Below, one piece after another: positions 22,566 to 44,813 of a stretch of 64,000 bases of DNA (positions within the stretch are counted from its first letter, which is position 1; each line of letters begins with the position of its first letter). The translations under genes and the position numbers were made by a program. The notes beneath the pieces are model-generated. The model was given only the letters and a program-made list of their open reading frames with translations. It had not been told where the DNA came from and made no database searches. Source of the DNA: an uncultured Chloroflexia bacterium (lineage in GTDB: Bacteria > Chloroflexota > Limnocylindria > Limnocylindrales > CSP1-4); contig CAWGNI010000002.1 in assembly GCA_963823925.1 (NCBI GenBank), positions 153,292-217,291 of the forward strand, written 5' to 3'.

Positions 22566-23480
22566 TCACACCGGGCGGCTGCGTCGTCTCGAGAGCGCGG
22601 CGATGTCGGCCGGACCGGTCCCGCAGCAGCCGCCCAGCCAGGTCGTGCCGATCCGGCCAAACCGACCGCATCGGGGTCGAATGCCCGCCGGCGTCGGCGA
22701 CCCATTGCCGTTCCGTCGCGTCCCAGCGATCCCCTCCGTTCGGGTAAGCGATGAGGGGTGCGTCACTCACGGCCCTCGCCTCGGGCGCTTGCCAGCAGGT
22801 CCGGCAGATAGCGTGGCGCCGTGCAATTGACGCCGATCGCGAGGACCGTGGGTGCGTCCCCGAACGCGACGGCATCCTCGATCGGCTCCCCGGCGGCCGT
22901 CGTCTCGCCATCGCGGCATGCGTAGCTCAGCCAACCGCGGGCACCGAGCTCGCCCAGCAACGCGACGACGACATCCGCCTCGCGGATCGTCGGGATCGTC
23001 TCGACCGCAAGCAAGTCGGCCCCGGCTTCGAGCAGCACCTCCAGCCGGGGCCGGTGAAAGGCCGCGAACCCGGCCCTCGTCAGATGGTAGTCACCGCGGT
23101 ATTCGGATCCGTTGGCGAGCATCGCCCCGTACGGACCGACCGAGCCGGCCACCAGCAAGGGTCGATCGTCGCCCGTCTCCGCCCGATACCGGTCGCGCGC
23201 CCGCTGCGCGAGTACGACGCTCGATCGGATGAGGGAGAGCGCCGCGTCGCGCTCGAACCCGGCCCCGCGAAACCCTCGATCGAGGCCTGATAGCTAGCCG
23301 TCGTCGCGACCTGGGCTCCGGCCCGGAAATAGGCCAGGTGGACGTCCTCGATCGCATCCGGATCCGTCTGGAGCAGGCGGGCCGACCAAAGGTGGTCCGA
23401 CAGATCGTGGCCGCGAGCCATCAACTCCGTCGCCAGCCCACCGTCGAGGACGGCGACGTCGTCCGGGACCGGGCCAGCTC
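22566..23480 (-). pseudogene. mmuM: homocysteine S-methyltransferase (MmuM/BHMT family) disrupted by at least 3 frameshifts
   Basis: The homology runs across three reading frames. The N-terminal part ([17 protein letters not shown]...ASIEGF) is in one frame. The middle ([10 protein letters not shown]...GVNCTAPRY) is in a second. The C-terminal parts (PLIAYPNGGDRWDA and TTWLGGCCGTGPADIAAL) are in two further frame segments. No start codon is evident either. Confidence 0.7.
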
Positions 23481-23492
23481 GGCGAGTCCACC

Positions 23493-24890
23493 TCAGTGCG
23501 TTCGGACGTAGTCTGCCGCGGATCGCTTGATGAATCGGCCGTGGCCTCGGCGGCCCGTGAACTCCCCATCGCGGACGATGACCGAGCCGCGCGACAGGAC
23601 GATATCGCTCCCGCCCTGGACGGAGCGCCCTTCGTAGCACGAATAGTCGACGGCCATGTGGTGAGTCGCTGCCGAGATCGTATGTCGCCGGTCGGGGTCG
23701 TAGATGACGATATCGGCATCGGAGCCGACCGCGATGGCACCCTTCTTCGGGTACATCCCGAACAGCTTGGCCGGCGCCGTCGCGATGATCTCCACCCACC
23801 GCTCCCGGGTGATCCGGCCACCGACGACGCCGCCGTCGTGGAGCAGATCCAGCCGGTCCTCGACGCCAGGCAGGCCGTTCGGGACCTTGCGGAAGTCATC
23901 GCGGCCGAGGTCCTTCTGGCCGTGGAAGTCGAACGGACAGTGGTCCGTGGCCACCAGCTGGAGGTCGTCCCTGACCAGACCCGTCCAGAGCTCCTCCCAG
24001 TGATCCTTCGTGCGGAGGGGAGGGGAGCACACGAACTTGGCGCCCTCGAACCCGTGGCCCAGGTCGTCGAGCGACAGGAACAGGTACTGCGGGCAGGTCT
24101 CGGCGAACACGTCCGACCCCCGATCGCGGGCATCCCGCACGACGTCGAGCGCCTCCCGGGCGGACAGGTGGACGAAGTAGACGGGCGCTCCGGCCGCCTC
24201 CGCCAGGCGGATGACCCGGTTCGTCGCCTCGCCCTCGAAGACGGGCATCCGGGCCAGCCCGTGACCGATCGGGTCGGTCGTGCCGGCCGCCACGGTCTGC
24301 TCGGCCACGACGTCGATGGCCATCCCGTTCTCCGCGTGCATCATGATCAGTCCGCCATTCGCGGCCGTCTGCTGCAGCGCCCGGAAGATCGCCCCATCGT
24401 CGCTGTAGAAGACGCCCGGGTAGGCGGTGAACAGCTTGAAGTCCGGCACCCCCTCGGCCACCAGCCCGTCCATCTCGGCCAGCGTGTCGTCATTGACGTC
24501 GCTCATGATCATGTGGAAGCCGTAGTCGGTCACGGCATTGCCCTCGGCCTTGGCGTGCCAGGTGTCGAGACCGTCGCGCAGGGACGCTCCCCGCGACTGG
24601 ACGGCGAAGTCCACGATCGTGGTGGTGCCTCCGAAGGCTGCCGCGCGCGTGCCCGACTCGAAGGTGTCCTTGGCGAACGTCCCGCCGAAGGGCAACTCCA
24701 TGTGGGTGTGGACGTCGATCCCGCCCGGGATGACGTACTTTCCGGTCGCGTCGATCGTCTCGTCGGGCTCGGCACCCGATGCGAGGAGATCGGTCCCGAT
24801 CCGCGCGATCGTCTCGCCATCGATCAGGACGTCGGCGACGGTCGAACCGTCGGCCGTGACGATCGTCCCGCCGGTGATCAGGGTGCGCAT
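23493..24890 (-). CDS. dihydropyrimidinase / D-hydantoinase (cyclic amidohydrolase)
   Basis: 465 aa of the metal-dependent amidohydrolase family with the HxH motif ([13 protein letters not shown]), a carboxylated-Lys region and hydantoinase-family similarity end to end. Confidence 0.85.
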
Positions 24891-25295: not shown

Positions 25296-26290
25296 CTAGC
25301 CGCGCAGGCCCGGGATGACGTCCCGCCCGTACGCCTCGAGCTGGGCTTCCTCATCGCCGCTCATGAGATACAGGTTGAACTGGTCGACGCCGGCATCCGC
25401 CAGTTCGTGCAACTTGGCGACGTGCTCGTCGACCGAGCCGAGGATGCAGAACCGGTCCGCGACCTCGTCGCCGACGAAGGCGGCATTGGATGAACCGACC
25501 TCGGCGTGGTGCTCGTAGTCGTAGCCGGACCGATCGGTGACGTATCCGGTCAGGCTGGCCGGGAGCTGCTCGCGCGGGTACTTGTTGACGAGGTCGACGA
25601 CGTGGTTGGAGACGAGCGCCGGGAACCATCGAGTCCGCTCGCGGCCGACGTCGCGCGGTCCGACGTAGGCGGCGGCCGCCGACTGGACCTTGATCGTCGC
25701 CGGGTCCCGACCGGCCGCCGCGGCGGCCTCGCGGACCTGTCCGACGAACCAGCGGATGAGGTCCGGATCCGCGAGCTGGAGGATGATCCCGTCGGCGACC
25801 CGCCCGGCCATCTTGAGGGCCATGGGTCCATAGCCCGCGACCCAGACGGGCAGGGTCCAGTCGCCGGTCCAGGGCAACCGCAATTCGGTCCCCTCGTACT
25901 CGATGTCGCGCCCTTCGACGAGCGCCTTGATGGCGACGATCGCCTCCTCAAGGGTCGCCATCGTCGTCGGTGGCTTGCCGAGCATGCGTCGCGCCGAGTC
26001 GCCGCGACCGATCCCGAGATCCATCCGCCCGTCGGAGATCTCGTTCAGGGTCGCCAGAGTCGAGGCGGTGACCGACGGTTCGCGGGTCGCCGGGTTGGTG
26101 ACGCATGTGCCCAGGCGGAGCCGGGTCGTCGCCTCCGCCATCAGGGTCAGGAGGACGTACGGCTCACGCCAAAGGACGTGGGAGTCGAAGAGCCACGCGT
26201 AGTCGAACCCTGCCGACTTCGGCCTGGCGGGTCAGCGCCAGGGTTCGCTCGATCGAATGCTCAGGCTTGAGGGTGAAACCGAACTGCATG
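25296..26290 (-). CDS. LLM-class (luciferase-like) flavin/F420-dependent oxidoreductase, interrupted by a +1 frameshift near 26213
   Basis: The N-terminus MQFGFTLKPEHSIERTLALTRQAEV lies in one frame (26290..about 26215). The remainder (FDYAWLFDSHVLWREPYVLLTLMAEATT...) lies in the next frame down to 25296. One extra G in gtcgGcagg explains the shift. Confidence 0.7.
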
Positions 26291-26299
26291 ACAACGATC

Positions 26300-27163
26300 C
26301 TACGGGCGGGTCAGATCGGCGTAGGCGTCGGGCCGACGGTCACGGAAGAATTGCCAGGTGTTGCGGACCTCCGCGATCCGGTCCATGTCGAGGTCCCGGA
26401 CGATGAGCTCCTCGTCATGGGCGCTGCCGAGCTCGCCGACGAACTGGCCGCGCGGGTCGACGAAGTAGCTCTGGCCGTAGAAATCGTCGTCGCCGATCTC
26501 GGCCTCGATCCCGACCCGGTTGATCGTGCCGACGTAGTAGCCGTTGGCGATGGCGTGACTGACCTGCTCGATCCGCCACAGGTGCTCGGACAGCCCGCGC
26601 GATGTCGCGCTCGGGATCAGGACGATCTCCGCCCCGTTCAACCCGAGCGCTCGTGCTCCCTCCGGGAAGTGGCGGTCATAGCAGATATAGACGCCGATCT
26701 TGCCGACCGCCGTCTCGAACACGGGATAGCCGAGGTTGCCCGGCCGGAAGTAGAACTTCTCCCAGAACCCCTTGACATGGGGGATGTGGGTCTTCCGGTA
26801 CTTCCCCAGGTACGTTCCGTCCGGATCGATGACCGCCGCGGTGTTGTAGTAGATCCCCGCGGCCTTCTCATCTACCTCGTACATCGGGGCGACGACGACC
26901 ATCCCGGTCTGCTTGGCGAGATCCTGCATCCGCTTCGTCGTCGGGCCGTCCGGGATCAGCTCCGTGTAGCTGTAGTACTGGGCGTCCTGGACCTGGCAGA
27001 AGTACGGCCCGTAGAACAGTTCCTGGAACAGGATGAACTGGGCCCCCTGCTTGGCCGCCTCGTGCGCGTGGGCTTCGTGCTTCTGGATCATCGATTCCTT
27101 GTCGCCGGTCCAGGTGGCCTGGACGAGCGCACCGCGGATCATTCGAGCCATGTCGCGGATCAC
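26300..27163 (-). CDS. carbon-nitrogen hydrolase family enzyme: beta-ureidopropionase / N-carbamoyl-amino-acid amidohydrolase
   Basis: Nitrilase-superfamily fold with a catalytic Cys region (GVYICYDRHFPE) and an E-K-C triad context. It is adjacent to the dihydropyrimidinase gene. Confidence 0.75.
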   Translation of the reverse strand: MIRDMARMIRGALVQATWTGDKESMIQKHEAHAHEAAKQGAQFILFQELFYGPYFCQVQDAQYYSYTELIPDGPTTKRMQDLAKQTGMVVVAPMYEVDEKAAGIYYNTAAVIDPDGTYLGKYRKTHIPHVKGFWEKFYFRPGNLGYPVFETAVGKIGVYICYDRHFPEGARALGLNGAEIVLIPSATSRGLSEHLWRIEQVSHAIANGYYVGTINRVGIEAEIGDDDFYGQSYFVDPRGQFVGELGSAHDEELIVRDLDMDRIAEVRNTWQFFRDRRPDAYADLTRP

Positions 27164-31845: not shown

Positions 31846-31933
31846 GTACCTGCTCGTCTGGGCCCACGCTCGTTCGGTCGGCCGGATGTGCTTCAATCCA
31901 ACGACAGCGACATCCGCCCACCCGAGGAGTCCC

Positions 31934-33268
31934 ATGGGCATCACGACGGAAACCGGCGCCATGACCAGCGACGAGATCGTCGCGCTCTCGCGCCAGCACA
32001 CGTTCTTCTCCTGGTCCATCCAGGGCGCCATCGACCCGATCGCGATCGACCATGCCGAAGGCGTCTACCTGTACACCCCGGAGGGTGAACGGATCCTCGA
32101 CTTCAACAGCCAGTTGATGTCGGTCAACATCGGGCACGGCGATCGCCGGGTCATCGACGCGATCGCCGACCAGGCGACCAAGCTCCAATTCGTCCAGCCC
32201 GCCTTCACGACGGAGGTCCGGGCCCGTCTTGGCGCGAAGCTGGCGGAGATCCTGCCCGGCGACATGGACAAGGTCTTCTTCACGCTCGGCGGTGCCGAAG
32301 CGGTCGAGAACGCGATCAAGCTGGCCCGCCACGCGAGTGGTCGACACAAGATCCTTGCTCGATATCGCTCCTATCACGGGGCGACGCTCGGCGCGATGAC
32401 CCTGACCGGCGATCCACGCCGATGGGCGAACGAGCCCGGGATCGTCGGCGTCGTTCGCTATCCCGACACCCATCGTTGGGGCGAAGCCGAGCCCCGGCCG
32501 GTCGCGGAGAGCCTCCAGGGGCTCGAGGACGTCATCCGCTACGAAGGCGCCAAGTCGATCGCGGCCGTCTTCCTCGAGACGATCGTCGGCACCAACGGGA
32601 TCCTGATCCCGCCCGACGGCTATATCGCCGGTGTCCGTGAGATCTGCGACCGCCACGACATCCTGATGGTCGCCGATGAGGTGATGGCCGGGTTCGGCCG
32701 GACCGGGCGCTGGTTCGCCATCGATCACTGGGGCGTCACCCCGGACCTGATGACGATGGCGAAGGGCCTGACCAGTTCGTACCTGCCACTCGGCGCGGTG
32801 GCCATGCGCCACCACATCGCCGAGAAGTTCGAGACCCAGATGTTCTACGGCGGCCTCACCTACAGCAGTCACCCGATCAGCCTGGCCGCCTCCCTCGCGA
32901 CCATCTCGGTCTACGAAGAGGACGGCCTGATCGAGCACGCGGCCCGGCTCGATCCGGTCATGCGCGAACACCACGAGCGCCTTGCGGCCCGGCACCCGAG
33001 CGTCGGCGCGACCCGCAATCTCGGCCTGTTCGGCATCATCGATCTCGTTCGCAGTCGCGACCCGTGGACGCCACTCACACCGTTCAATGGGACGTCGGAC
33101 GAGATGAAGGCGGTCGGCAAGTACCTGCGTGAGCACGGCCTGTACACCTTGCTCCCCAACAACTCGATCCATACGAACCCGCCCCTGTCGATCACCGAGG
33201 AGCAGCTGGCGGAGGGCTTCGAGATCATCGATCGCGCGCTCGAGATCGCCGACCGGGCGATCGCCTGA
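31934..33268 (+). CDS. class III (omega) aminotransferase, beta-alanine/omega-amino acid:pyruvate transaminase-like
   Basis: PLP class III fold with the lysine region (MTMAKGLTSSYLPLGAV). Full length is about 444 aa. Confidence 0.85.
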   Translation: MGITTETGAMTSDEIVALSRQHTFFSWSIQGAIDPIAIDHAEGVYLYTPEGERILDFNSQLMSVNIGHGDRRVIDAIADQATKLQFVQPAFTTEVRARLGAKLAEILPGDMDKVFFTLGGAEAVENAIKLARHASGRHKILARYRSYHGATLGAMTLTGDPRRWANEPGIVGVVRYPDTHRWGEAEPRPVAESLQGLEDVIRYEGAKSIAAVFLETIVGTNGILIPPDGYIAGVREICDRHDILMVADEVMAGFGRTGRWFAIDHWGVTPDLMTMAKGLTSSYLPLGAVAMRHHIAEKFETQMFYGGLTYSSHPISLAASLATISVYEEDGLIEHAARLDPVMREHHERLAARHPSVGATRNLGLFGIIDLVRSRDPWTPLTPFNGTSDEMKAVGKYLREHGLYTLLPNNSIHTNPPLSITEEQLAEGFEIIDRALEIADRAIA

Positions 33269-35968: not shown

Positions 35969-37069
35969 ATGAAACTGTCTCGCAAGCTGGTCGGCCTGTC
36001 GGCCGCGGCCGTGCTGGTACTCGCGGCGTGCTCGAGCAGCGGGTCGTCCGCCGCCGCGCTGACGCCGCTCAAGTTCCAGCTCCAGTGGGTCGCCCAGTCC
36101 CAGTTCGCCGGCTACTACGCGGCGGTCGACCAGGGCTATTACAAGGACGCCGGCCTCGACGTCACGCTGCTGCTGGGTGGACCGAACATCAACAACGTCC
36201 AGGTCGTGGCGACCGGTGGGGCGGACATCGGGACGGCGTGGCTTCCGAACATGCTCCAGTCGCGCGAGGGCGGGACGGATCTCGTCTCGATCGCCCAGAT
36301 CTTCCAGCGCTCGGGCACGCGGATGGTGTCGTTCACGGGCGCGAACATCACGACCCCTGCCAGCATGGATGGCAAGAAGATCGGCAGCTGGCTGGGCGGC
36401 AATGAGCCCGAACTGTTCGCCGCATTGACCAAGGCCGGGCTCGATCCGACCACGCAGAACATCATCAAGCAGAACTTCGACATGTCCGGCCTCCTCAACG
36501 GCGACCTCGATGTCGCCCAGGCGATGATCTACAACGAGTACGCCCAGGTCCTCGAGGCGAAGGACCCGGCCACCGGGGAGCTGTACAAGCCGAGCGACCT
36601 CAACCTGGTCGACTTCAACGACCCATCGGTCGGGACGGCGATGCTCCAGGACCAGATCTTCGCCACCGATGCGTGGCTCAAGACCGGCAATAATGCCGAT
36701 GTCGCGGAGAAGTTCCTGGAGGCGACCTTCAAGGGTTGGATCTACTGCCGTGACAACGCCCAGAAGTGCGTCGACATCGTGCTCGCCAAGGGGTCGCAGC
36801 TCGGGGCCAGCCATCAGGCCTGGCAGATGAACGAGATCAACGGGCTCATCTGGCCGTCACCGAACGGGATCGGCCTGCTGGACCAGACGCTCTACGACCA
36901 GACGGTTTCGATCGCCACCACCTACGGCGTCCTCCAGGCCGCGCCCGCCGATGGGGCGACCCGGACGGACCTCGCCCAGAAGGCCCTCGACGCGCTCGGC
37001 AGCTCGGTCGACACGAAGGGGATGGGCTTCACGAAGGCGACGGTCACGCTGACCGAGGGCGGCAACTAG
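35969..37069 (+). CDS. ABC transporter substrate-binding lipoprotein (NMT1/THI5-like, NitT/TauT family)
   Basis: Lipobox (LAAC|SSS) and GAGGAGG RBS. About 330-aa periplasmic binding fold of the NMT1/THI5 type, which is often pyrimidine or HMP related. Confidence 0.8.
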   Translation: MKLSRKLVGLSAAAVLVLAACSSSGSSAAALTPLKFQLQWVAQSQFAGYYAAVDQGYYKDAGLDVTLLLGGPNINNVQVVATGGADIGTAWLPNMLQSREGGTDLVSIAQIFQRSGTRMVSFTGANITTPASMDGKKIGSWLGGNEPELFAALTKAGLDPTTQNIIKQNFDMSGLLNGDLDVAQAMIYNEYAQVLEAKDPATGELYKPSDLNLVDFNDPSVGTAMLQDQIFATDAWLKTGNNADVAEKFLEATFKGWIYCRDNAQKCVDIVLAKGSQLGASHQAWQMNEINGLIWPSPNGIGLLDQTLYDQTVSIATTYGVLQAAPADGATRTDLAQKALDALGSSVDTKGMGFTKATVTLTEGGN

Positions 37070-37146
37070 CCGCTCGCGGTCCGATCGACATCGACGGTCG
37101 GCTCGTGACCGGCCGGCCCGTCGATCTTCCGCGGGATCCGGGGCAC

Positions 37147-38157
37147 CTAGGACGACCTGGCCCAGGATCGAAGCGTCTTCATATAGTTGACTCGCTCGAA
37201 GGCGGCTGGGTCGCCGACCGTCGCCTGACTGGCGCTGCCCCTGAGCTCCTCGACCAATTCGTAGTCGCGCTCGGTCAGCCACGCGCGCAGGTCGGACACG
37301 ACCCTGGCGACGTGCTCGGGACCCTGGCGGAGCAGGGCAGAGGTCATCATCACGACATCGGCCCCGACCATCAACCCCTTGACCACATCGGTCCCGCTGG
37401 CCGCGCCCGATGTCGCCGCGAGCGATACGCGGGCGTCCAGCTGGGGTCGAAGGATGGCGATCCAGCGGACCGGCAGCCGCATCTCCCAGGGATGGCTCAA
37501 CTCGATCCTGGGTACGACCTCGAGCGCATCGAGATCGAGGTCCGGCTGGTAGAACCGATTGAACAGCACGAGCCCATCGGCACCCGCGCCGACCGCTTGA
37601 GCGGCGAAGTTGGCGAAGGCCGAGTAGAACGGGCTCAGCTTGACCGCCAGGGGGATGGCGATCGAGTCGCGGACGGCGGTGATCAGGGCGAGGTCGATCG
37701 CGTCCATCTCCTCCGCCGTTCGATGCGGGTCGGTCGCGAGGTGGTACAGGTTGAGTTCGAGCGCATCGGCGCCGGCGGCCTCAAGTTGACGGGCATATTC
37801 CACCCAGCCGCCGGGCGTGCTCGCGTTGAGACTCGCGATCACCGGGATATCGACGGCCTCCTTGACCCGCTCCAGCGAGGCGACGTATCGGTCGGCCACG
37901 CCGATCAGGCCCTGGACCGCCGGGAAGTAGTCGAGCGCCTCGGCGAACTGACCGGTGCCCTGTTCGAGCGCGCGATCGAGGGCCAGCTCCTCGCCCACGA
38001 CCTCCTCCTCGAACAGCGACGGCAGGACGATCGCACCCGCTCCCGAGTCCTCGAGGCGACGGGCCATGTCGGGGTCCGCGTTGTCCGGTGCGGCCGAGGC
38101 GACGACCGGCGAGCGGAGTTCGAGACCCAGGTAGCGCGTACGCAGATCGACGCTCAC
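37147..38157 (-). CDS. dihydroorotate dehydrogenase-like protein (DHOD/DPD PreA-like FMN TIM barrel, no ferredoxin domain)
   Basis: GTG start with an AAGGAGA RBS. About 336 aa with DHOD-family similarity (LGLELRSPVVASAAP...AVKLSPFYS...GLVLFNRF). The start overlaps the PFOR stop by 4 nt. Confidence 0.75.
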   Translation of the reverse strand: MSVDLRTRYLGLELRSPVVASAAPDNADPDMARRLEDSGAGAIVLPSLFEEEVVGEELALDRALEQGTGQFAEALDYFPAVQGLIGVADRYVASLERVKEAVDIPVIASLNASTPGGWVEYARQLEAAGADALELNLYHLATDPHRTAEEMDAIDLALITAVRDSIAIPLAVKLSPFYSAFANFAAQAVGAGADGLVLFNRFYQPDLDLDALEVVPRIELSHPWEMRLPVRWIAILRPQLDARVSLAATSGAASGTDVVKGLMVGADVVMMTSALLRQGPEHVARVVSDLRAWLTERDYELVEELRGSASQATVGDPAAFERVNYMKTLRSWARSS

Positions 38158-41100
38158 GATTCGTCTCCTTCGCCGTCCTGTCCGGATCCTGCGTCGCGTT
38201 CGACTGCGACTCCGATATCCGCCTCCGGTCGATCGAGGTGCGGGACCGTCCGCTCGATGTCGGCCAGTTGCTCGTAGTAATGCCGGTGTTCGTCGGCATC
38301 GGATTGGGCGAGGGACGCGAGTTCGGCCGCACGCTCCGGGTGCGTCCGCTTGAGCACGGAGAACCGTGTCTCGTTGCCCACGAATGCCGCGATCGGGATC
38401 GATGGCGCGGCGGAATCGAGCTTGAACGGCTTGACGCCGTCGACCTCGGACGGCTGGAACCGATAGAGCGGCCAGTAGCCACTCCGGACCGCGTCCTTCT
38501 GGTGGGTCATCGACTTCGACATGTCGATCCCGTGGGCGATACACGTGCTGTAGGCGATGACCAGCGACGGTCCCGGCCAGGCATCGGCCTCGAGGAGCGC
38601 CTTGGTCGTCTGGAGGTCGTTCGCACCCATCGCCACCTGGGCGACGTAGACGTTGCCATACGAGCGGGCGATCGCCCCGAGATCCTTCTTGGCCGTGCCT
38701 TTGCCGGCGGCCGCGAACTTGGCCACCGCCCCGCGTGGGGTCGCCTTCGAGGACTGGCCGCCGGTGTTCGAATAGACCTCCGTGTCGAGGACCAGGATGT
38801 TCACGTTGCGACCGGACGACAGGACCTGGTCGACGCCACCGAACCCGATGTCGTAGGCCCAGCCGTCGCCGCCGATGATCCAGATGCCCGTCCGAACGAG
38901 GTCGCCGGCCAGTGCAAGGAGGTGCTGGGCGTCCGCGGCCCCCGGGCCGTCGATCGTGGTGAGGCTGTCGCGCAAGCGGTCGATCCGCTCCCGCTGGGCG
39001 GTGATCTCCGGCTCCGTATCCTGGCTGGCGTCCAGGATCGCCGTCGCGAGTCCTTCGCCGATGTCGGGGGCCAGGCGCTCGACCAGCCGGCGAGCCTGGT
39101 CGGTCTGCGCGTCGAGCGCGAGCCGCATCCCCAGCCCGAATTCCGCGTTGTCCTCGAACAGCGAGTTGCTCCAGGCCGGGCCGCGTCCGGCCGCGTTGAC
39201 GGCCCATGGCGTGGTCGGCAGGTTGGCGCCGTAGATGGACGAGCAACCGGTCGCGTTGGCGACGATCATCCGGTCGCCGAAGAGCTGGCTGACCAGACGG
39301 ATGTAGGGCGTCTCGCCGCAACCGCCGCAGGCGCCGGAGAACTCGAACAGTGGCTCCAGGACCTGGCTGCCCTTCACCGAATCGTGCGGGATCAGGCCGC
39401 GATCGAGCGGCGCGATCGACTGGAAGAAGTCCCAGCGGACACGCTCCGTGTCGCGGTGGTCGAGGACCGGTTCCATGTTGATGGCCTTATGGCTCGTGTC
39501 CGTCTTGCTCTTGGCAGGACAGACGTCAACACACACGCCGCACCCGGTGCAGTCGTCGGGCGCGACCTGGATCGTCAGGCGATGGTCGAGCAGGTCCCGG
39601 GACTTGAATTCCTTGCTCAGGAACGAGGCTGGCGCCGACTCGACCGCGGCGGACGGGAAGACCTTCATCCGGATCGTCGCGTGTGGACAGACCATGGCGC
39701 ACTTGCCGCAGTCGATGCAGATGGCCGGATCCCACACCGGGATCTCCTGCGCGATCGCTCGCTTCTCGTACTGCGTGGTCCCGGTCGGGAACGTGCCGTC
39801 GACCGGGAGGGCGCTCACCGGCAGGAGGTCGCCCTCGCCGGCCATCAGCCGGGATGTGACCCGGGCGACGAAGTCCGGAACGCCCTCAGGCGCCGACGGT
39901 GTCGTCGGCTGGTCGTTCGTGACCGTGCCGAGCGGGACGTGGGCGAGGCGTGCGAGCGAGCTGTCGATCGCGTCGAAGTTTCGGGTCACGATCGCCTCGC
40001 CGCGCTTCGCGTAGGTGGCTTCGACCCAGGACTTGATACGGGCGACGGCCTCGTCCGGCGGCAGGATCCCGGACAGCTGGAAGAAGCATGGCTGCATCAC
40101 GGTGTTGATCCGGCTGCCCATGCCGGCCTCGTTGGCGACGGCGGATGCGTCGATCACCCAGAAGTCGATCGCCTTCTCGATCAGCAGTTCCTGGACACCT
40201 CCCGGCAGGTGCTCCCAGACCTCGTCTGGGCCGTACGGAGCGTTGAGCAGGAAGGTCGCGCCGTGCTTCGCGTACTCGAGGACCTTGGTCTTGCCGAGCA
40301 TCCCGAACTGATGGCAGGCGATGAAGTCGGCATCGTCGATCAGGTAGGTGGAGCGGATGGGTTCAGGTCCGAACCGAAGGTGGGAGACCGTGATCGAACC
40401 GGACTTCTTCGAGTCGTACACGAAGTAGCCCTGGGTGAACAGGTCGGTGCCCTCGCCGATGATCTTGATCGATGCCTTGTTGGCGCCGACGGTGCCATCC
40501 GAGCCGAGCCCGAAGAACATCGCCTGGACCTCGCCGGCCGGGCGGGAATGACGGAAGTCGTGGTCGATCGGCAGGCTGAGGTGGGTGACGTCGTCGTAGA
40601 TCCCGACGGTGAAGTGGCGCCGCGATCTGGCCACGGCCAGCTCGTCGAAGATCGGCTTGATCATCGACGGCGTCATCTCCTTCGATGACAGGCCGTACCG
40701 GCCCCCGATCACCCGGGGCGACGTCTCGAAACGAGGCTTGTCGACGTCCTGTGCCTCGTCCAGGGCGGCAAGCACCTCGAGGTAGAGCGGTTCACCGACC
40801 GCGCCGGGCTCCTTCGTCCGGTCGAGGACCGCGATAGCCCTGGTCGTGGATGGTAGGGCCGCGAGGAGTGCCGCGGCAGGGAATGGCTGGAACAGCCGGA
40901 TCCGGAGCATCCCGACCCGCTCCCCGGCAGCGACCAGCGCGTCGACCGTTTCCTCGACCGCGCCCGAGGCCGAGCCCATCACGACGACGACGCGGTCCGC
41001 ATCCGGGGCGCCGTGGTAGTCGACGAGCCCGTACTGGCGGCCGGTCCGGGTCGCGAGCTCATCCATGACGTCCTGGACGATGCCGGGAACGGCAAGGTGG

Positions 41101-41804
41101 AACGGGTTCGACGCCTCGCGCGCCTGGAAGAAGACATCCGGGTTCTGCGCGGTCCCGCGCACGACCGGCGCGTCCGGGGTCAGGCCCTGGCGGCGGAAGG
41201 CGAGGACATCGTCGTCGCGGATCAGGGCCCGGACGTCGTCCTGATCGAGGATCGCGATCTTGTCGACCTCGTGCGAGGTGCGGAAGCCGTCGAAGAAATG
41301 GAGGAACGGGACGCGCGACCGGAGCGTCGCCGCGTGCGCCACCAGCGCAAAGTCGTGCGCCTCCTGGACCGATCCGGCGGCGAGCATCGCCCAGCCGGTC
41401 GTGCGGGCATGCATCACGTCGCTGTGGTCGCCGAAGATCGACAGGGCGTGGGTCGCGATCGTACGGGCCGCCACGTGGATGACCGCCGGCGTCAGTTCAC
41501 CGGCGATCTTGAACATGTTCGGGACCATCAGGAGCAGGCCCTGGGACGCGGTGAACGTCGTCGCGAGCGCGCCCTTCTGGAGTGCGCCGTGGAGGGCACC
41601 GGCCGCCCCCGCCTCGGACTGCATCTCGACGATCTCCGGGACCTTGCCCCACAGGTTCGGCTGTCCCGCGGCCGACCAGTCGTCACAATGCTCGGCCATC
41701 GGGGAAGCCGGGGTGATCGGGTAGATCGAGATGACTTCGCTGACGGCGTAGGCGACGCGTGCCGCCGCCTCGTTCCCGTCGACGCACTCGTGCTGCTTGT
41801 CCAC
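38154..41804 (-). CDS. nifJ: pyruvate:ferredoxin (flavodoxin) oxidoreductase, single-polypeptide PFOR
   Basis: 1216 aa. It carries TPP and ferredoxin domains with two 4Fe-4S CxxCxxCxxxCP motifs (CIDCGKCAMVCP, CTGCGVCVDVCP) and a GDG TPP-binding region. GTG start with a GGGAGG RBS. Confidence 0.9.
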   Translation of the reverse strand: MDKQHECVDGNEAAARVAYAVSEVISIYPITPASPMAEHCDDWSAAGQPNLWGKVPEIVEMQSEAGAAGALHGALQKGALATTFTASQGLLLMVPNMFKIAGELTPAVIHVAARTIATHALSIFGDHSDVMHARTTGWAMLAAGSVQEAHDFALVAHAATLRSRVPFLHFFDGFRTSHEVDKIAILDQDDVRALIRDDDVLAFRRQGLTPDAPVVRGTAQNPDVFFQAREASNPFHLAVPGIVQDVMDELATRTGRQYGLVDYHGAPDADRVVVVMGSASGAVEETVDALVAAGERVGMLRIRLFQPFPAAALLAALPSTTRAIAVLDRTKEPGAVGEPLYLEVLAALDEAQDVDKPRFETSPRVIGGRYGLSSKEMTPSMIKPIFDELAVARSRRHFTVGIYDDVTHLSLPIDHDFRHSRPAGEVQAMFFGLGSDGTVGANKASIKIIGEGTDLFTQGYFVYDSKKSGSITVSHLRFGPEPIRSTYLIDDADFIACHQFGMLGKTKVLEYAKHGATFLLNAPYGPDEVWEHLPGGVQELLIEKAIDFWVIDASAVANEAGMGSRINTVMQPCFFQLSGILPPDEAVARIKSWVEATYAKRGEAIVTRNFDAIDSSLARLAHVPLGTVTNDQPTTPSAPEGVPDFVARVTSRLMAGEGDLLPVSALPVDGTFPTGTTQYEKRAIAQEIPVWDPAICIDCGKCAMVCPHATIRMKVFPSAAVESAPASFLSKEFKSRDLLDHRLTIQVAPDDCTGCGVCVDVCPAKSKTDTSHKAINMEPVLDHRDTERVRWDFFQSIAPLDRGLIPHDSVKGSQVLEPLFEFSGACGGCGETPYIRLVSQLFGDRMIVANATGCSSIYGANLPTTPWAVNAAGRGPAWSNSLFEDNAEFGLGMRLALDAQTDQARRLVERLAPDIGEGLATAILDASQDTEPEITAQRERIDRLRDSLTTIDGPGAADAQHLLALAGDLVRTGIWIIGGDGWAYDIGFGGVDQVLSSGRNVNILVLDTEVYSNTGGQSSKATPRGAVAKFAAAGKGTAKKDLGAIARSYGNVYVAQVAMGANDLQTTKALLEADAWPGPSLVIAYSTCIAHGIDMSKSMTHQKDAVRSGYWPLYRFQPSEVDGVKPFKLDSAAPSIPIAAFVGNETRFSVLKRTHPERAAELASLAQSDADEHRHYYEQLADIERTVPHLDRPEADIGVAVERDAGSGQDGEGDES

Positions 41805-42165
41805 GTGCGGGCCTCCCGTTCAGGGACCTGGTCGTGACGCGTCCCTTTGTCGGGTTCGGTCCGGCTCAAATGGTGGGCGTCCAGCGCGACCGTCGACAGG
41901 GCCGAAAGGCCTGCGAGAGCCGGGACCAGTGCCGGGAATGCTGCTCGCTGCACGGACGGGACAGTTGGTTCGTTACTTGCGCAACTACGCAACCTGATGC
42001 TAGAGTGGGCCAACCCACGGATGCCCGATCAGCGGAGTGATCAACGACATGTCTTCAGGCAGCTTCGCGCGGGAGGACCGGTCGTGATCGGCCGGGCGAT
42101 GCCGGCTGGCTAGCCCAGCCGCAGCGGTCCTGGCGACGACCGACCGGCGGTTCGCCCTCCATGCC

Positions 42166-42615
42166 GTGCTGTGGACGATCGCCTCGCTCGCCGCCTTCGG
42201 GCTGGTCGCCGCCATCATCCCCAACCCGGTCTTCGGACGGCAGGTGCCCGTCGAGCCATTCGCGATCGCTGTCTGGCTCCTGTCAGCCCCGCTCATGGGG
42301 CTGCTCGGGGCGACCTACACGGCTCCCGGTCCTGTCGCTCGCGCCGAGCCGGCTGCGCTCGTCCTCACTCCCGCCGGCGTCGCCACGAACCACGATGGGA
42401 CGACCCTCGGGGCCGTGGCAAGTGTCGGTGCATTCCTCGCGATCGGCTGCCCGGTCTGTAACAAGATCGCCCTGGTCCTCCTGGGGACGAGCGGGGCGAT
42501 GACCATCTTCGCCCCGATCCAACCCGCCATCGGAGCGGTCTCACTCGCCCTGCTGGCCGCGACGCTGGCCTGGCGTCTGCGGCTGCGGACGCGTGCGGGA
42601 ACCTGCCGCATCTGA
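42166..42615 (+). CDS. membrane protein (hypothetical) with CPVC motif
   Basis: 149-aa 4-TM ORF. GCPVCNK lies between TM helices. Confidence 0.4.
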   Translation: MLWTIASLAAFGLVAAIIPNPVFGRQVPVEPFAIAVWLLSAPLMGLLGATYTAPGPVARAEPAALVLTPAGVATNHDGTTLGAVASVGAFLAIGCPVCNKIALVLLGTSGAMTIFAPIQPAIGAVSLALLAATLAWRLRLRTRAGTCRI

Positions 42616-42644
42616 GCGGCCACACTCCACGACTCGAGGTATTC

Positions 42645-43082
42645 ATGCGTTCCGTTTTGCGCCGGATCCCGGGTGCCCGCGTCGGCACTCGCCTGTCCTC
42701 CCGCGTCGCCCTCGTTGCCCTTGTCGCCCTGGCGGCGATGGTCATGGCCGGGTGCGGCGGTTCCGCGGCCACATCCGCCGTCCAGAAGGTCGGTGCGAAC
42801 GAGGCCGTCGGCATGCTCGACTCGCGCGTCGTCGTCGACGTCCGCACTCCTGCGGAGTACGCCGCCGGGCACATCGCCGGAGCCGCCAACATCGATGTCG
42901 AGGCCTCCGACTTCTCTGCACAGATCTCGTCCCTCGACAAGAACGCGGCGTACCTCGTCTACTGTCAGTCGGGCCGGCGGAGCGCCATCGCCGCCGAGCA
43001 GATGGCCGCGGCCGGCTTCACCGACATCGTCGACGGCGGTGCGATGGGGGACCTTGTGGCGGCGGGCGCGCCCACCGAGTAG
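42645..43082 (+). CDS. rhodanese-domain sulfurtransferase lipoprotein
   Basis: Lipobox (VMAGC|GGS). Rhodanese active-site loop CQSGRRS. Confidence 0.75.
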   Translation: MRSVLRRIPGARVGTRLSSRVALVALVALAAMVMAGCGGSAATSAVQKVGANEAVGMLDSRVVVDVRTPAEYAAGHIAGAANIDVEASDFSAQISSLDKNAAYLVYCQSGRRSAIAAEQMAAAGFTDIVDGGAMGDLVAAGAPTE

Positions 43083-43240: not shown

Positions 43241-44813
43241 GTGGCGACCATTGCTCGAAGCGTCCCGGACGGCCTCGCAACATCGATGGCTGGAGCCTCG
43301 TTGAGTCGCGCCGTCGCCTTCCCGGTCGCGGTCGGCCTCTCACTCGTTCTGGCCTGGTCGGCGTCTGCCGCCGGGCCGGGCGTCACCGTGGTCCGCGAGA
43401 CGCCCGTCAGCGCAGCCCCGAGGAGCAGCTCGAGCCGGACTCGGGAGCCGATCGTCGCCGCCCATCCGACCGATCCGACCCGGATCGCCGTGACCTATCC
43501 CCGGGGCGACACGCACCCCAAGGGATGTCATCGCCATCTCGCACGACAGCGGCAAGACATTCAAGGCCGCAGCCGGCGACCCGGCGGGCGGGGGCAACCA
43601 CCCGGCGATCGCCTGGGGCAAGGGCCCGAAGGCGGGCTCTGCGCGGCTCTACTACATGGCCCTGACCACGGCGGGCGGGCGATGCTGCGTCTTTGCCATC
43701 TCGCACAGCGACAACGAGGGGCGGACCTGGTCCGCGCCGTTCATCGCCCGCGGCACGACACCCTGGTTCGGCGGCTTTCCTGACATCACGACCGATGACG
43801 ACCCGGCGAGCCCCAACTACGGGACCGTGTACGCGGCCTACAACTGGCCGGCCAAGCCGAGCAAAGGGCCGGGGCTGCGGCTGCTGGCTTCGTCCGACTA
43901 CGGCCGCACGTTCCACGGCATCGAGGTCCCGGTCGCCAGGACCCCAGCAGGGTTCGGCGACAGCTGGCGGATCGACTACCGCGTCGAGCCCGCGCCCGAC
44001 GGCTCCGCCTACGTCGCCTTCTACCAGCGTGACCTCCGGTCGTGGAATATCGGCAGTCCGTTCTCCTATGGCGGGCTCTCGAATGTCGGCCGGATCGGCT
44101 TCTCGGTCGCCCGCTTCACCTATCACCGCTCCAGCGGGAGGTTCTCGCTCGGCCCCACGGTGATGGCGGCGAAGCTGTCGAGGACGGCCTGGAACATCGG
44201 CAGCGGGTCGCCGGTCACGGGACTGACGGATCCGATGTGGAATTTCGGGCTCGCCGTCGACCCGGGCACCGGGGCGGTCTACCTCGCGGTCGGGATCGAC
44301 GGCGGTGTCCGCGTCTACCGGAGCAACACCAACGGCGTCACCTGGGCCTACAGCACGCTACCCGCGGCCAGCGCAGTGGCCGGACACCGACAGAAGACCT
44401 TCCATCCGAACGTCGTGGCCGGTGACGGCTTCGTGCTGGTCACCCTGCACACGATCGACCGCTCCGGCGCCTCGCGCTCGGTCGGTAACGACTATGCCGT
44501 CTCGTTCGACCATGGCAGGACGTGGACTCGCCCGAAGGCGATCAGCCCGAGCCGCTGGAAGACGAGGTACTTCTCGTCGACCTACAACGGGGTCGGACTG
44601 CGCGAGCGCGCGGTCCTCACGGCCGACGGGACACGCGTGTTCTGGGCCTATGGCGATGGACGCATGGGCCGCTACGGGTTCAGCCGCATCTACGGCACCC
44701 TGCTCTCGGTCACGAAACCGGTCCCAGCGCCTGACCCGACGCCCACGCCCACGCCCACGCCGACACCGACGCCCATGCCGGCACCTACGCCCGCGCCATC
44801 ATCGGTTGGGTGA
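43241..44813 (+). CDS. secreted BNR/Asp-box repeat protein (sialidase-like beta-propeller) with C-terminal Pro-Thr linker; frameshifted near 43510
   Basis: Multiple SxDxGxTW Asp-boxes (SHDSGKTF, SHSDNEGRTWS, SSDYGRTF, SNTNGVTWA, SFDHGRTWT). The N-terminal signal-like segment is in a different frame from the rest. Confidence 0.55.
44737..44800. repeat. (ccS acS)n low-complexity repeat encoding PTPTPTPTPTPTPMPAPTPAP linker
   Basis: Direct reading of the sequence. Confidence 0.7.

Follow-up and report, generated by a model that had tools for sequence, protein, structure and literature searches.

The 64-kb stretch of DNA analysed here (hereafter the window) carries a two-gene operon in which nifJ, encoding pyruvate:ferredoxin oxidoreductase (PFOR), is followed by a gene for a dihydroorotate dehydrogenase-like (DHOD-like) flavoprotein of the PRK07565/NF005741 type (Table 1). 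The stop codon of PFOR, TGA (38156-38154), overlaps the GTG start of the DHOD-like gene (38157-38155) to form a 4-nt GTGA, an arrangement that an earlier note on this DNA had described and that the coordinates confirm, together with the strong ribosome-binding site that it had reported for the DHOD-like gene (AAGGAG, 38170-38165).

Table 1. Coordinates of the operon and of neighbouring features in the window
Feature	Position	Strand	Remarks
Single-chain pyruvate:ferredoxin (flavodoxin) oxidoreductase (nifJ/PFOR)	38154..41804	(-)	1216 aa, GTG start
DHOD-like FMN TIM-barrel protein gene (NF005741/PRK07565)	37147..38157	(-)	336 aa, GTG start
GTGA stop/start overlap, PFOR to DHOD-like gene	38154..38157	(-)	direct sequence reading
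Shine-Dalgarno AAGGAG of DHOD-like gene	38165..38170	(-)	direct reading; 7 nt before GTG, within PFOR CDS
Shine-Dalgarno GGGAGG of PFOR	41812..41817	(-)	direct reading; 7 nt before PFOR GTG
Intergenic region 5' of operon	41805..42165	(-)	contains imperfect palindrome
NMT1/THI5 binding protein, with two permeases and ATPase	35969-37069		
Class-III aminotransferase	31886-33268		
Dihydropyrimidinase TIGR02033	23493-24890		
CN_hydrolase	26300-27163		below every NCBIfam equivalog cutoff
MMSDH TIGR01722	20988-22559		

By profile score and domain order, the PFOR of the window is a canonical enzyme of the TIGR02176 NifJ/YdbK type. It scores 1716.5 bits against TIGR02176 (cutoff 911.35), with residues 7-1182 of 1216 covered, and 1329 bits over residues 6-1182 against the PFOR of M. 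thermoacetica (6CIN), and its Pfam domains follow in the order POR_N, PFOR_II, POR (gamma), EKR, two Fer4 (a dicluster, 2x[4Fe-4S]) and TPP_enzyme_C. Two CxxCxxCxxxCP motifs (CIDCGKCAMVCP and CTGCGVCVDVCP) can be read in the translation, as can the further cluster-ligand motifs GACGGCGETPY and ATGCSS. Upstream of PFOR lies the imperfect palindrome (41967-41994, core TTGCGCAA), which is present also in the closest relative (L001) and counts as weak evidence because the comparison comprises only two close sequences. A promoter and terminator consensus scan of 36900-42700 found no sigma-70 consensus match in the intergenic region upstream of the operon, and an Rfam scan of the same interval gave no match.

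The NMT1/THI5-type ABC transporter, which had been placed immediately upstream of the pair, is indeed present but lies downstream of the DHOD-like gene in convergent orientation, with the two stops 77 nt apart, and therefore belongs to a separate transcription unit. Of the pyrimidine-catabolic genes that had been listed nearby, dihydropyrimidinase, the aminotransferase and MMSDH were borne out, and the CN hydrolase was found only below equivalog level. The gene upp lies 3 kb upstream of the pair. Searches of all 64 kb found no PreT/GltD-like gene (tblastn) and no detectable second DHOD/PreA-like gene, in agreement with the earlier statement that the window holds no canonical PreT/PreA or PydA. 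Between dihydropyrimidinase and the CN hydrolase there is a TIGR03842 F420-dependent LLM gene, and such a gene adjoins dihydropyrimidinase in Chloroflexota relatives and on a Streptomyces replicon as well. Because it adjoins dihydropyrimidinase both here and on the Streptomyces replicon, the LLM is a better candidate for the missing step, and the pyrimidine genes of the window form a separate cluster with this candidate reductase of their own; no functional study of TIGR03842 or of an F420-linked dihydropyrimidinase or dihydropyrimidine dehydrogenase (DPD) turned up in the literature searched.

Conservation of the gene pair

We compared 83 loci carrying the DHOD-like gene, of which the 80 genome loci are the best matches to the window protein; for contig look-up, a relative 90% identical (P0002) was used instead of the window's own protein (P0001). 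In 77 of the 83 loci the gene immediately upstream, on the same strand, encodes PFOR. Four of the remaining six lack sequence upstream of the DHOD-like gene, which leaves 77 of 79 informative loci; this adjacency of 97% may be too high for the family at large, because the 80 genome loci were chosen as best matches. Of these 77 pairs, 24 have overlapping stop and start codons (20 of them as the 4-nt ATGA/GTGA type), and the gap is at most 200 nt in all but six. Judged by record titles, the hosts come from at least 12 phyla, among them Chloroflexota, Actinomycetota, Bacteroidota, Ignavibacteriota, Verrucomicrobiota, Planctomycetota, Calditrichota, Deinococcota, Armatimonadota, Acidobacteriota, Cyanobacteriota and Pseudomonadota. 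With PFOR upstream in nearly all informative loci across so many phyla, the link is therefore ancient and strong, and the neighbourhood comparison bears out nifJ and the DHOD-like gene as a conserved unit that is often translationally coupled. The earlier note had the pairing recur in Actinobacteria; actinomycetotal members do occur in the locus set, but it is not specific to them, and the titles of the closest relatives name Chloroflexota (Chloroflexia, Limnocylindrales), not Actinomycetota. DHOD-like genes also occur with no adjacent PFOR (Roseiflexus L067, Ignavibacteriota L017, and plasmids of Stanieria, Acaryochloris and Methylocella), and co-encoding is therefore not obligatory. Adjacency of the two genes is compatible with mere co-regulation, too.

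Beyond the pair itself, all-against-all clustering of the ORFs from the 83 loci found no third conserved gene in more than 15 loci, the next-commonest cluster (at most 15 of 83) consisting of ABC-transporter components, mostly the ATPase. Apart from the window, only the two closest relatives have the NMT1 transporter beside the pair. Not one of the 83 loci has a dihydropyrimidinase within 10 kb, and a single locus has a CN hydrolase there, a remote one (29% identity). In relatives of 75% identity the pair adjoins PHA synthase, thiolase and malic enzyme, and sporadic neighbours, each in 5-8 of 83 loci, include Usp, CBS, NarL-type regulators, acetyl-CoA hydrolase/transferase, NiFe hydrogenase and NuoD. 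Taken together, the genes around the pair speak for fermentation, low oxygen and stress rather than for pyrimidine catabolism. A reading as fumarate reductase was set aside, since the neighbour links to the reductive C4 branch are not conserved: PEPCK and MDH occur in the window, whereas L002 and L003 have malic enzyme.

A three-gene layout occurs on plasmids of Methylovirgula and Phenylobacterium, where a PreT-like protein, nifJ and the DHOD-like gene follow one another in this order. In the PreT-like protein, Fer4_20 and Pyr_redox_2 are accompanied by a Fer4 dicluster at the C terminus, and the two proteins flanking nifJ together carry all the domains of DPD. Only alphaproteobacterial plasmid loci have a PreT/GltD-like gene beside nifJ; four further loci have only remote GltD/PreT-like genes several kb off. 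In Propionibacterium, GltD-like and DHOD-like genes flank PFOR and are co-transcribed and co-regulated with it (PMC7650540), and Synechocystis sll0744 belongs to the nifJ transcription unit (nifJ-sll0743-sll0744) and is induced in dark microoxia (PMC11368403). The window has the gene pairing in common with both operons, family identity there being taken from annotation and layout, and carries neither the GltD-like gene of the former nor an sll0743-like gene as in the latter; our locus set includes a cyanobacterial member (Okeania, L079). The pairing is thus already known from Propionibacterium and Synechocystis, and the family is already catalogued (NF005741). The earlier note had stated that no biochemical function was published, and no functional study of sll0744 or of a nifJ-linked DHOD-like protein turned up in the literature searched, but the pairing itself had been noted before (PMC7650540, PMC11368403).

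Family and active site of the DHOD-like protein

Against NF005741/PRK07565 ('dihydroorotate dehydrogenase-like protein') the window protein scores 410 bits (cutoff 303), residues 3-333 aligning with positions 2-330 of the 335-position profile, and it contains all of the consensus motifs (SLFEEQ, IASLN, ELNxY, AVKLSP, LFNRFYQPD and the C-terminal ERxNY). By these measures it is an ordinary member, with no difference, of a catalogued family that has no assigned function. Its sole Pfam match is DHO_dh. All related models stayed below their cutoffs, namely NF006183 (PreA; 57.3 bits, cutoff 335), TIGR01037 (75.3, cutoff 270), PRK07259 (72, cutoff 269), archaeal PyrD (67.8, cutoff 330) and the class 2 PyrD models (at most 32 bits, cutoffs at least 200), so that the profiles, with NF005741 alone above cutoff, identify the protein as neither true PyrD nor PreA. 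As had been noted, a C-terminal ferredoxin domain is absent: Pfam finds no Fer4 domain, and there is no cysteine in the 336 residues. Among the best 150 family representatives there is no obvious case of an Fe-S or PFOR fusion, and several of the eight over-length or atypical members inspected have unrelated or frameshifted extensions.

In an alignment of 112 family members, K173, G251 and G265 are invariant (112/112 each), and N200 (104/112) and N136 (103/112) nearly so; judged from sequence, the FMN-binding scaffold of DHOD and DPD is retained. The catalytic cysteine of DHOD and DPD (C671 in pig DPD) corresponds to His139 in the loop ELNLYHL, and this column varies through the family (Y25, F20, H10, S9, D8, R8), in line with the earlier observation that a catalytic Cys/Ser loop is lacking. 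The position of Lys43 in DHODA and of K574 in DPD is P46 in the window and variable in the family (residue counts P36, H22, R14, Y12, F9, K6); loss of this lysine could weaken the flavin chemistry. The equivalents of C671, K574, T737 and N609 of DPD are not kept in the family: T737 corresponds to R201 (107/112), and the N609 region aligns with no conserved asparagine. Among the pyrimidine contacts of DPD only the N668 and N736 equivalents remain, both of which are also FMN contacts, and in PyrD terms the only pyrimidine-binding asparagines kept are the N136 and N200 equivalents. On this alignment, the pyrimidine-binding and catalytic residues are lost.

Fold comparison places the protein nearest to two FMN subunits that are wired to Fe-S clusters, those of DHODB (PyrD) and DPD. 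Identity to Lactococcus lactis DHODB, which consists of a PyrD FMN subunit and a PyrK Fe-S/FAD subunit (1EP1), is about 22%; the catalytic-Cys loop ELNISCPN of DHODB is replaced by ELNLYHL, the orotate-binding residues are not retained, and the partner gene is PFOR instead of PyrK. Domain IV of pig DPD (531-853) aligns with the window protein as a whole (residues 2-306), and the equivalents of K709, N668 and N736 are retained; unlike DPD and PreA, however, the window protein has no C-terminal 2x[4Fe-4S] domain, lacks C671 and K574, and has arginine in place of T737. It also differs from PreT/PreA systems in that its gene shows no conserved pyrimidine-catabolic link across the 83 loci.

A possible role in the electron output of PFOR

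At about an even chance, we propose that the DHOD-like protein is an FMN redox partner in the electron-output path of PFOR, fed by Fe-S clusters. The protein would bind FMN, and the flavin would receive the one-electron output of the clusters, much as in the transfer from PyrK to PyrD in DHODB or from the [4Fe-4S] chain to domain IV in DPD. Electrons would come from the clusters in the ferredoxin domain of PFOR itself or, in the three-gene lineages, from those of the PreT/GltD-like protein with its additional ferredoxin domain. The flavin would in turn reduce, by two electrons, an acceptor other than uracil, thymine or orotate. Polar residues whose conservation is specific to the family (S47, E51, N111, Y138, R201, Q204, D206, S221 and K260) suggest that the protein has a true substrate site, possibly for an anionic ligand, and is more than a passive carrier. 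Docking might involve the C-terminal helix (R322, Y325), which is conserved but predicted with low confidence. A more specific version, which we advance only tentatively, is that the two gene products assemble into a DPD-like wired complex in which pyruvate replaces NADPH and electrons would run from TPP through the three [4Fe-4S] clusters of PFOR to FMN and on to a two-electron acceptor. The pyruvate:NADP+ oxidoreductase of Euglena and Cryptosporidium is a PFOR fused to a flavoprotein reductase. There, too, a dedicated flavoprotein receives PFOR electrons instead of free ferredoxin; that partner, however, is a fused FMN/FAD module of the P450-reductase type with an NADP site, whereas in the window the partner would be a protein of its own, with FMN in a DHOD fold and lacking any recognisable nucleotide-binding domain.

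Instead of exchanging electrons with PFOR, the DHOD-like protein might be an independent FMN oxidoreductase that is only co-regulated, reduced for instance by NAD(P)H at its flavin site like old yellow enzymes and acting on a fermentative or low-oxygen metabolite. We consider this rather unlikely, since the overlap and the near-universal adjacency to nifJ across phyla exceed what most co-regulated pairs display, and since the three-gene layout puts nifJ between the DHOD-like gene and a DPD-type partner. An improbable further reading makes the protein a non-catalytic accessory subunit, a degenerate DHOD fold, flavin-bound or not, whose task would be to stabilise, protect (e.g., from oxygen) or regulate PFOR. 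Loss of the catalytic Cys/Ser and of the Lys43 equivalent would fit such a role, as would the Usp and CBS genes among the neighbours, the possible inactivity for which CDD flags this DHOD-like subgroup, and the many hosts from lineages usually described as aerobic (Ktedonobacteria, Trueperaceae, Isosphaeraceae, Methylovirgula, Phenylobacterium); the FMN site and its polar constellation (K173, N136, N200, R201, E51, S221), however, are strongly conserved, which argues for retained chemistry.

The earlier note had proposed a reductase of uracil/thymine (or a dihydroorotate-like substrate), driven by pyruvate and linked to ferredoxin, which would stand in for the DPD that the neighbouring catabolic genes lack. 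Dihydropyrimidinase, CN hydrolase, aminotransferase and MMSDH genes within 17 kb, the lack of PreT/PreA in the window, the nearby upp gene and a fold closest to DHODB and DPD all favoured it. We think this role very improbable: dihydropyrimidinase accompanies the pair in 0/83 loci, the 75%-identity relatives have PHA synthase, thiolase and malic enzyme beside it instead, the family does not conserve key DPD residues (the equivalents of C671, K574, T737 and N609), the transporter runs convergently and is confined to the two nearest relatives, and the TIGR03842 LLM beside dihydropyrimidinase is a better candidate. That the protein is a true PyrD of pyrimidine biosynthesis has next to no probability. 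The Pfam DHO_dh match and the JGI label 'dihydroorotate dehydrogenase (fumarate)' on relatives would suggest it, but every PyrD model falls far below cutoff and neither the catalytic Cys/Ser nor a Lys43 equivalent is present; the model scores effectively refute this identity. The pair most likely serves pyruvate and low-oxygen metabolism rather than pyrimidine breakdown, as far as residues and gene neighbourhoods indicate.

For annotation, the DHOD-like gene should be taken neither for pyrD or "DHOD (fumarate)" nor for the dihydropyrimidine dehydrogenase that nearby catabolic genes lack. PFOR, which is central to carbon metabolism under anaerobic and microoxic conditions, is usually described as passing its electrons to free ferredoxin or flavodoxin, and a flavoprotein gene labelled DHOD for years sits in the PFOR operon of hundreds of species. 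Our data suggest that part of the electron-output path of PFOR has so far gone unrecognised in cyanobacteria, propionibacteria and many soil bacteria that are commonly called aerobic, among other organisms. Genetically tractable hosts carry the system, namely Synechocystis (sll0744) and Propionibacterium freudenreichii, and the question is therefore directly testable. If the DPD-like wired complex is real, PFOR would have a further output branch, not recognised before, through which electrons avoid free ferredoxin. This branch would exist in at least 12 phyla, in many lineages that are considered aerobic and in the model cyanobacterium Synechocystis.

A PFOR gene coupled to a DHOD-like gene

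The nifJ gene encodes a canonical single-chain PFOR, which scored 1716 bits on TIGR02176 (cutoff 911) and 1329 bits against the Moorella thermoacetica enzyme (6CIN), and which carries the complete Pfam series (POR_N, PFOR_II, POR, EKR, two ferredoxin-type clusters, and TPP_enzyme_C). The stop codon of nifJ (TGA) and the start codon of the DHOD-like gene (GTG) share bases, giving GTGA, as an earlier note on this DNA had described, with AAGGAG located 7 nt 5' of that GTG. The same note had placed an ABC transporter upstream of the pair, but it lies downstream of the DHOD-like gene and is convergent with it, and is therefore a separate transcription unit. An imperfect palindrome (GGTTGCGTAGTTGCGCAAGTAACGAACC on the minus strand, core TTGCGCAA) is found ~165–190 nt upstream of the PFOR start and also in the closest relative (L001), with more distant loci not alignable there; it may be an operator. 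About 1.7 kb in the rhodanese-to-upp gap is missing in L001, where these genes are 63 nt apart. An ORF in the gap has apparent Asp-box/BNR-like motifs (SDNEGRTW, SSDYGRTF, and SFDHGRTW) and a Pro-Thr-rich tail, and its family search returned nothing except a weak match to Tli3.

Coordinates of features discussed in the text
Feature	Position in window	Strand	Basis
Homocysteine S-methyltransferase ORF, seemingly truncated	22763-23158	minus	Profile positions 93-218 of 283 matched
Dihydropyrimidinase	23493-24890	minus	TIGR02033
TIGR03842 F420-dependent luciferase-like oxidoreductase (LLM)	25296-26290	minus	379 bits (cutoff 295)
LLM frameshifted 5' end	about 26200-26290	minus	
CN hydrolase	26300-27163	minus	CN_hydrolase, below every NCBIfam equivalog cutoff
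DHOD-like protein, 336 aa, GTG start	37147-38157	minus	Pfam DHO_dh, NF005741/PRK07565
nifJ/PFOR, single-chain, 1216 aa, GTG start	38154-41804	minus	TIGR02176, Pfam, 6CIN
Imperfect palindrome	41967-41994		
Stretch missing in L001	43083-44856		
ORF with Asp-box/BNR-like motifs	43656-44813	plus	

The DHOD-like family comprises 973 clusters (50% identity, E < 1e-30), and a scan of one genome per species with the family alignment gave at least 597 matching stretches, the best 80 of which were taken with 10-kb flanks and joined by three loci from an exact protein look-up. Neighborhood conservation, a check proposed in the earlier note, was high across multiple phyla: a same-strand PFOR gene immediately preceded the DHOD-like gene in 77 of the 83 loci (tblastn), four others had no upstream sequence to search, and two (Ignavibacteriota L017 and Roseiflexus L067) truly lacked it. 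The resulting 97% adjacency (77 of 79 informative loci) may overstate the whole-family rate, since the 80 loci were chosen for their match to the window's DHOD-like protein. Stop and start overlapped in 24 of the 77 loci (20 of the 4-nt ATGA/GTGA type) and were 1 nt apart in four more, and the distance was ≤200 nt in all except six. By record title, the phyla were Chloroflexota, Actinomycetota, Bacteroidota, Ignavibacteriota, Verrucomicrobiota, Planctomycetota, Calditrichota, Deinococcota, Armatimonadota, Acidobacteriota, Cyanobacteriota, and Pseudomonadota, and the operon link is ancient. The earlier note had named Actinobacteria for this pairing; Actinomycetota are among the loci, but the pairing is not specific to them, and the nearest relatives are titled Chloroflexota (Chloroflexia, Limnocylindrales). 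Of five distinct close loci on plasmids, just two have nifJ next to the DHOD-like gene.

Several individual loci depart from the simple pair. One Actinomycetota MAG has a radical-SAM activase-like gene (Fer4_12 and Radical_SAM; L042 9266-9937) between the two genes. Distant Bacteroidales members (29–33% identity; Parabacteroides distasonis, L090 1324-5346) are not adjacent to PFOR; close to them is a large protein in which Pyr_redox_2, rhodanese, TusA, and DsrE domains are fused, and this points to another partner for the subfamily. At L002 (7247-10001), the PFOR gene calls cover two fragments (640 and 281 aa) and leave out the N-terminal part, probably due to frameshift errors in that assembly series, which is also that of the window's closest relatives.

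Family and active site of the DHOD-like protein

Profile HMMs, also proposed earlier, placed the DHOD-like protein in NF005741/PRK07565 ("dihydroorotate dehydrogenase-like protein"; 410 bits, cutoff 303) with a Pfam match to DHO_dh, and far under the cutoffs of the PyrD models (75 vs 270 and 72 vs 269) and the PreA model (57 vs 335). The domain search agreed with the earlier note in finding no ferredoxin domain, and the whole 336-aa sequence contains no cysteine.

A diverse 112-member profile could be aligned along its whole length to pig DPD domain IV and to the last two thirds of DHODB. Conserved residues include K173 (DPD K709; 112/112), N136 (N668; 103/112), N200 (N736; 104/112), and the glycines of the phosphate-binding turns. 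The reported absence of a catalytic Cys/Ser loop was borne out: the catalytic Cys position (C671 in DPD, C130 in DHODA) is His139 in the window and Y/F/H/S/D/R across the family. The Lys43/Lys574 position is Pro46 (P/H/R/Y/F/K across the family), an almost invariant Arg201 stands in place of T737, and the family profile has no conserved Asn in the N609 region. Because of these kept and lost residues, the FMN scaffold looks intact, and pyrimidine recognition and the usual proton-transfer residue are, as judged from the alignment, lost. A polar set specific to the family (S47, E50, E51, N111, W118, Y138, R201, Q204, D206, D208, S221, W232, and K260) is conserved, as is a C-terminal tail past the barrel (R322, 111/112; Y325, 104/112). 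The conserved Arg201 and acidic or polar residues give a hint that the protein has a specific ligand, perhaps an anion.

Pyrimidine catabolism and an alternative candidate reductase

The context genes named in the earlier note are present, comprising an NMT1/THI5 binding protein with two permeases and an ATPase, a class-III aminotransferase, a CN hydrolase, a dihydropyrimidinase (586 bits), and MMSDH (TIGR01722, 723 bits), and a canonical dihydropyrimidine dehydrogenase is indeed lacking, with neither a PreT-like gene nor a second DHOD-like gene detectable within the 64-kb window. The pair had been proposed to be a pyruvate-driven, ferredoxin-linked uracil/thymine reductase, but this is not supported: at the gene-neighborhood level, the pairing recurs without pyrimidine-catabolic genes, as no dihydropyrimidinase was found within 10 kb in any of the 83 loci and a CN hydrolase (remote, 29% identity) was near in one. 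Outside the two closest relatives (L001 and L011), neither the NMT1 transporter nor the aminotransferase was retained, and in 75%-identity relatives the same place is occupied by PHA synthase, thiolase, acetoacetyl-CoA reductase, and malic enzyme. Clustering of all ORFs from the loci gave no third conserved gene. Sporadic neighbors (5–8 loci each) included universal stress proteins, CBS proteins, NarL-type regulators, acetyl-CoA hydrolase/transferase, NiFe hydrogenase subunits, and NuoD, a signature of pyruvate, fermentative, low-oxygen metabolism.

For the reductive pyrimidine step, the LLM is a more economical candidate than the DHOD-like protein. Its gene sits between those for dihydropyrimidinase and CN hydrolase, and this cluster, with MMSDH, is retained in Chloroflexota relatives (L084-L087). 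In Streptomyces sp. BHT-5-2 p1 (L096), 18 nt separate the end of the dihydropyrimidinase gene (59% identity) from the start of the LLM gene, with a CN hydrolase (68% identity) 5 kb upstream. On plasmids of the Alphaproteobacteria Paracoccus alcaliphilus and Leisingera (L094, L095), the LLM is last in an F420 biosynthesis operon (cofG-cofH-cofD-cofC-cofE-npdG), and in Paracoccus the next genes encode a NitT/TauT ABC transporter akin to that in the window (ATPase 40% identity). The LLM is a candidate F420H2-dependent dihydropyrimidine dehydrogenase, an activity for which our literature search found no paper. The first ~24 codons of its gene (MQFGFTLKPEHSIERTLALTRQAE) are in another frame, reflecting either an assembly error or a pseudogene; its homologues are uninterrupted (330–336 aa).

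Possible roles of the DHOD-like protein

We give about an even chance to the DHOD-like protein being an FMN redox partner wired to PFOR or to a PreT-like protein. By analogy with its two nearest structural relatives, DHODB PyrD and DPD, it would bind FMN and take electrons from Fe-S clusters, the donor being the ferredoxin domain of PFOR in the two-gene form or the PreT-like protein in a three-gene form, and FMN would pass two electrons on to an acceptor. The three-gene form occurs on two alphaproteobacterial plasmids (Methylovirgula sp. HY1 pHY1, L088 2673-8999; Phenylobacterium zucineum, L091 1719-8008), where a "NAD(P)-binding protein" gene, nifJ, and the DHOD-like gene follow in series with gaps of 7–39 nt. 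The first protein (546–556 aa) is PreT/GltD-like (Fer4_20 and Pyr_redox_2) with a C-terminal 2x[4Fe-4S] ferredoxin domain by Pfam. PreA normally carries this domain itself, whereas here it is borne by the PreT-like protein, and therefore the genes flanking nifJ jointly hold every DPD domain. This layout agrees with that of Propionibacterium, where the genes flanking PFOR are co-transcribed and co-regulated with it, PFOR knockout crippled growth, and an electron-bifurcating complex was proposed (PMC7650540). In Synechocystis, the nifJ transcription unit includes sll0741, sll0743, and sll0744 ("DHOD (fumarate)") and responds to dark microoxia with a transient induction (PMC11368403); our literature search turned up no work on the function of sll0744. 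From annotation, layout, and a cyanobacterial member (Okeania L079), we infer that the Propionibacterium and Synechocystis proteins belong to the family.

A free-standing enzyme that is only co-regulated with PFOR is a rather unlikely but serious alternative; a non-catalytic accessory subunit is distinctly improbable, and readings beyond those named here jointly carry a similarly small weight. The proposed uracil/thymine reductase is very improbable given the neighborhoods and the more economical LLM, and a true PyrD hardly deserves consideration given its model scores. Each gene of the pair belongs to a catalogued family, of which it is an ordinary member, and their arrangement has already been labeled by automated annotation and mentioned in two papers; the function of the DHOD-like family is a question with broad reach that is easily tested.
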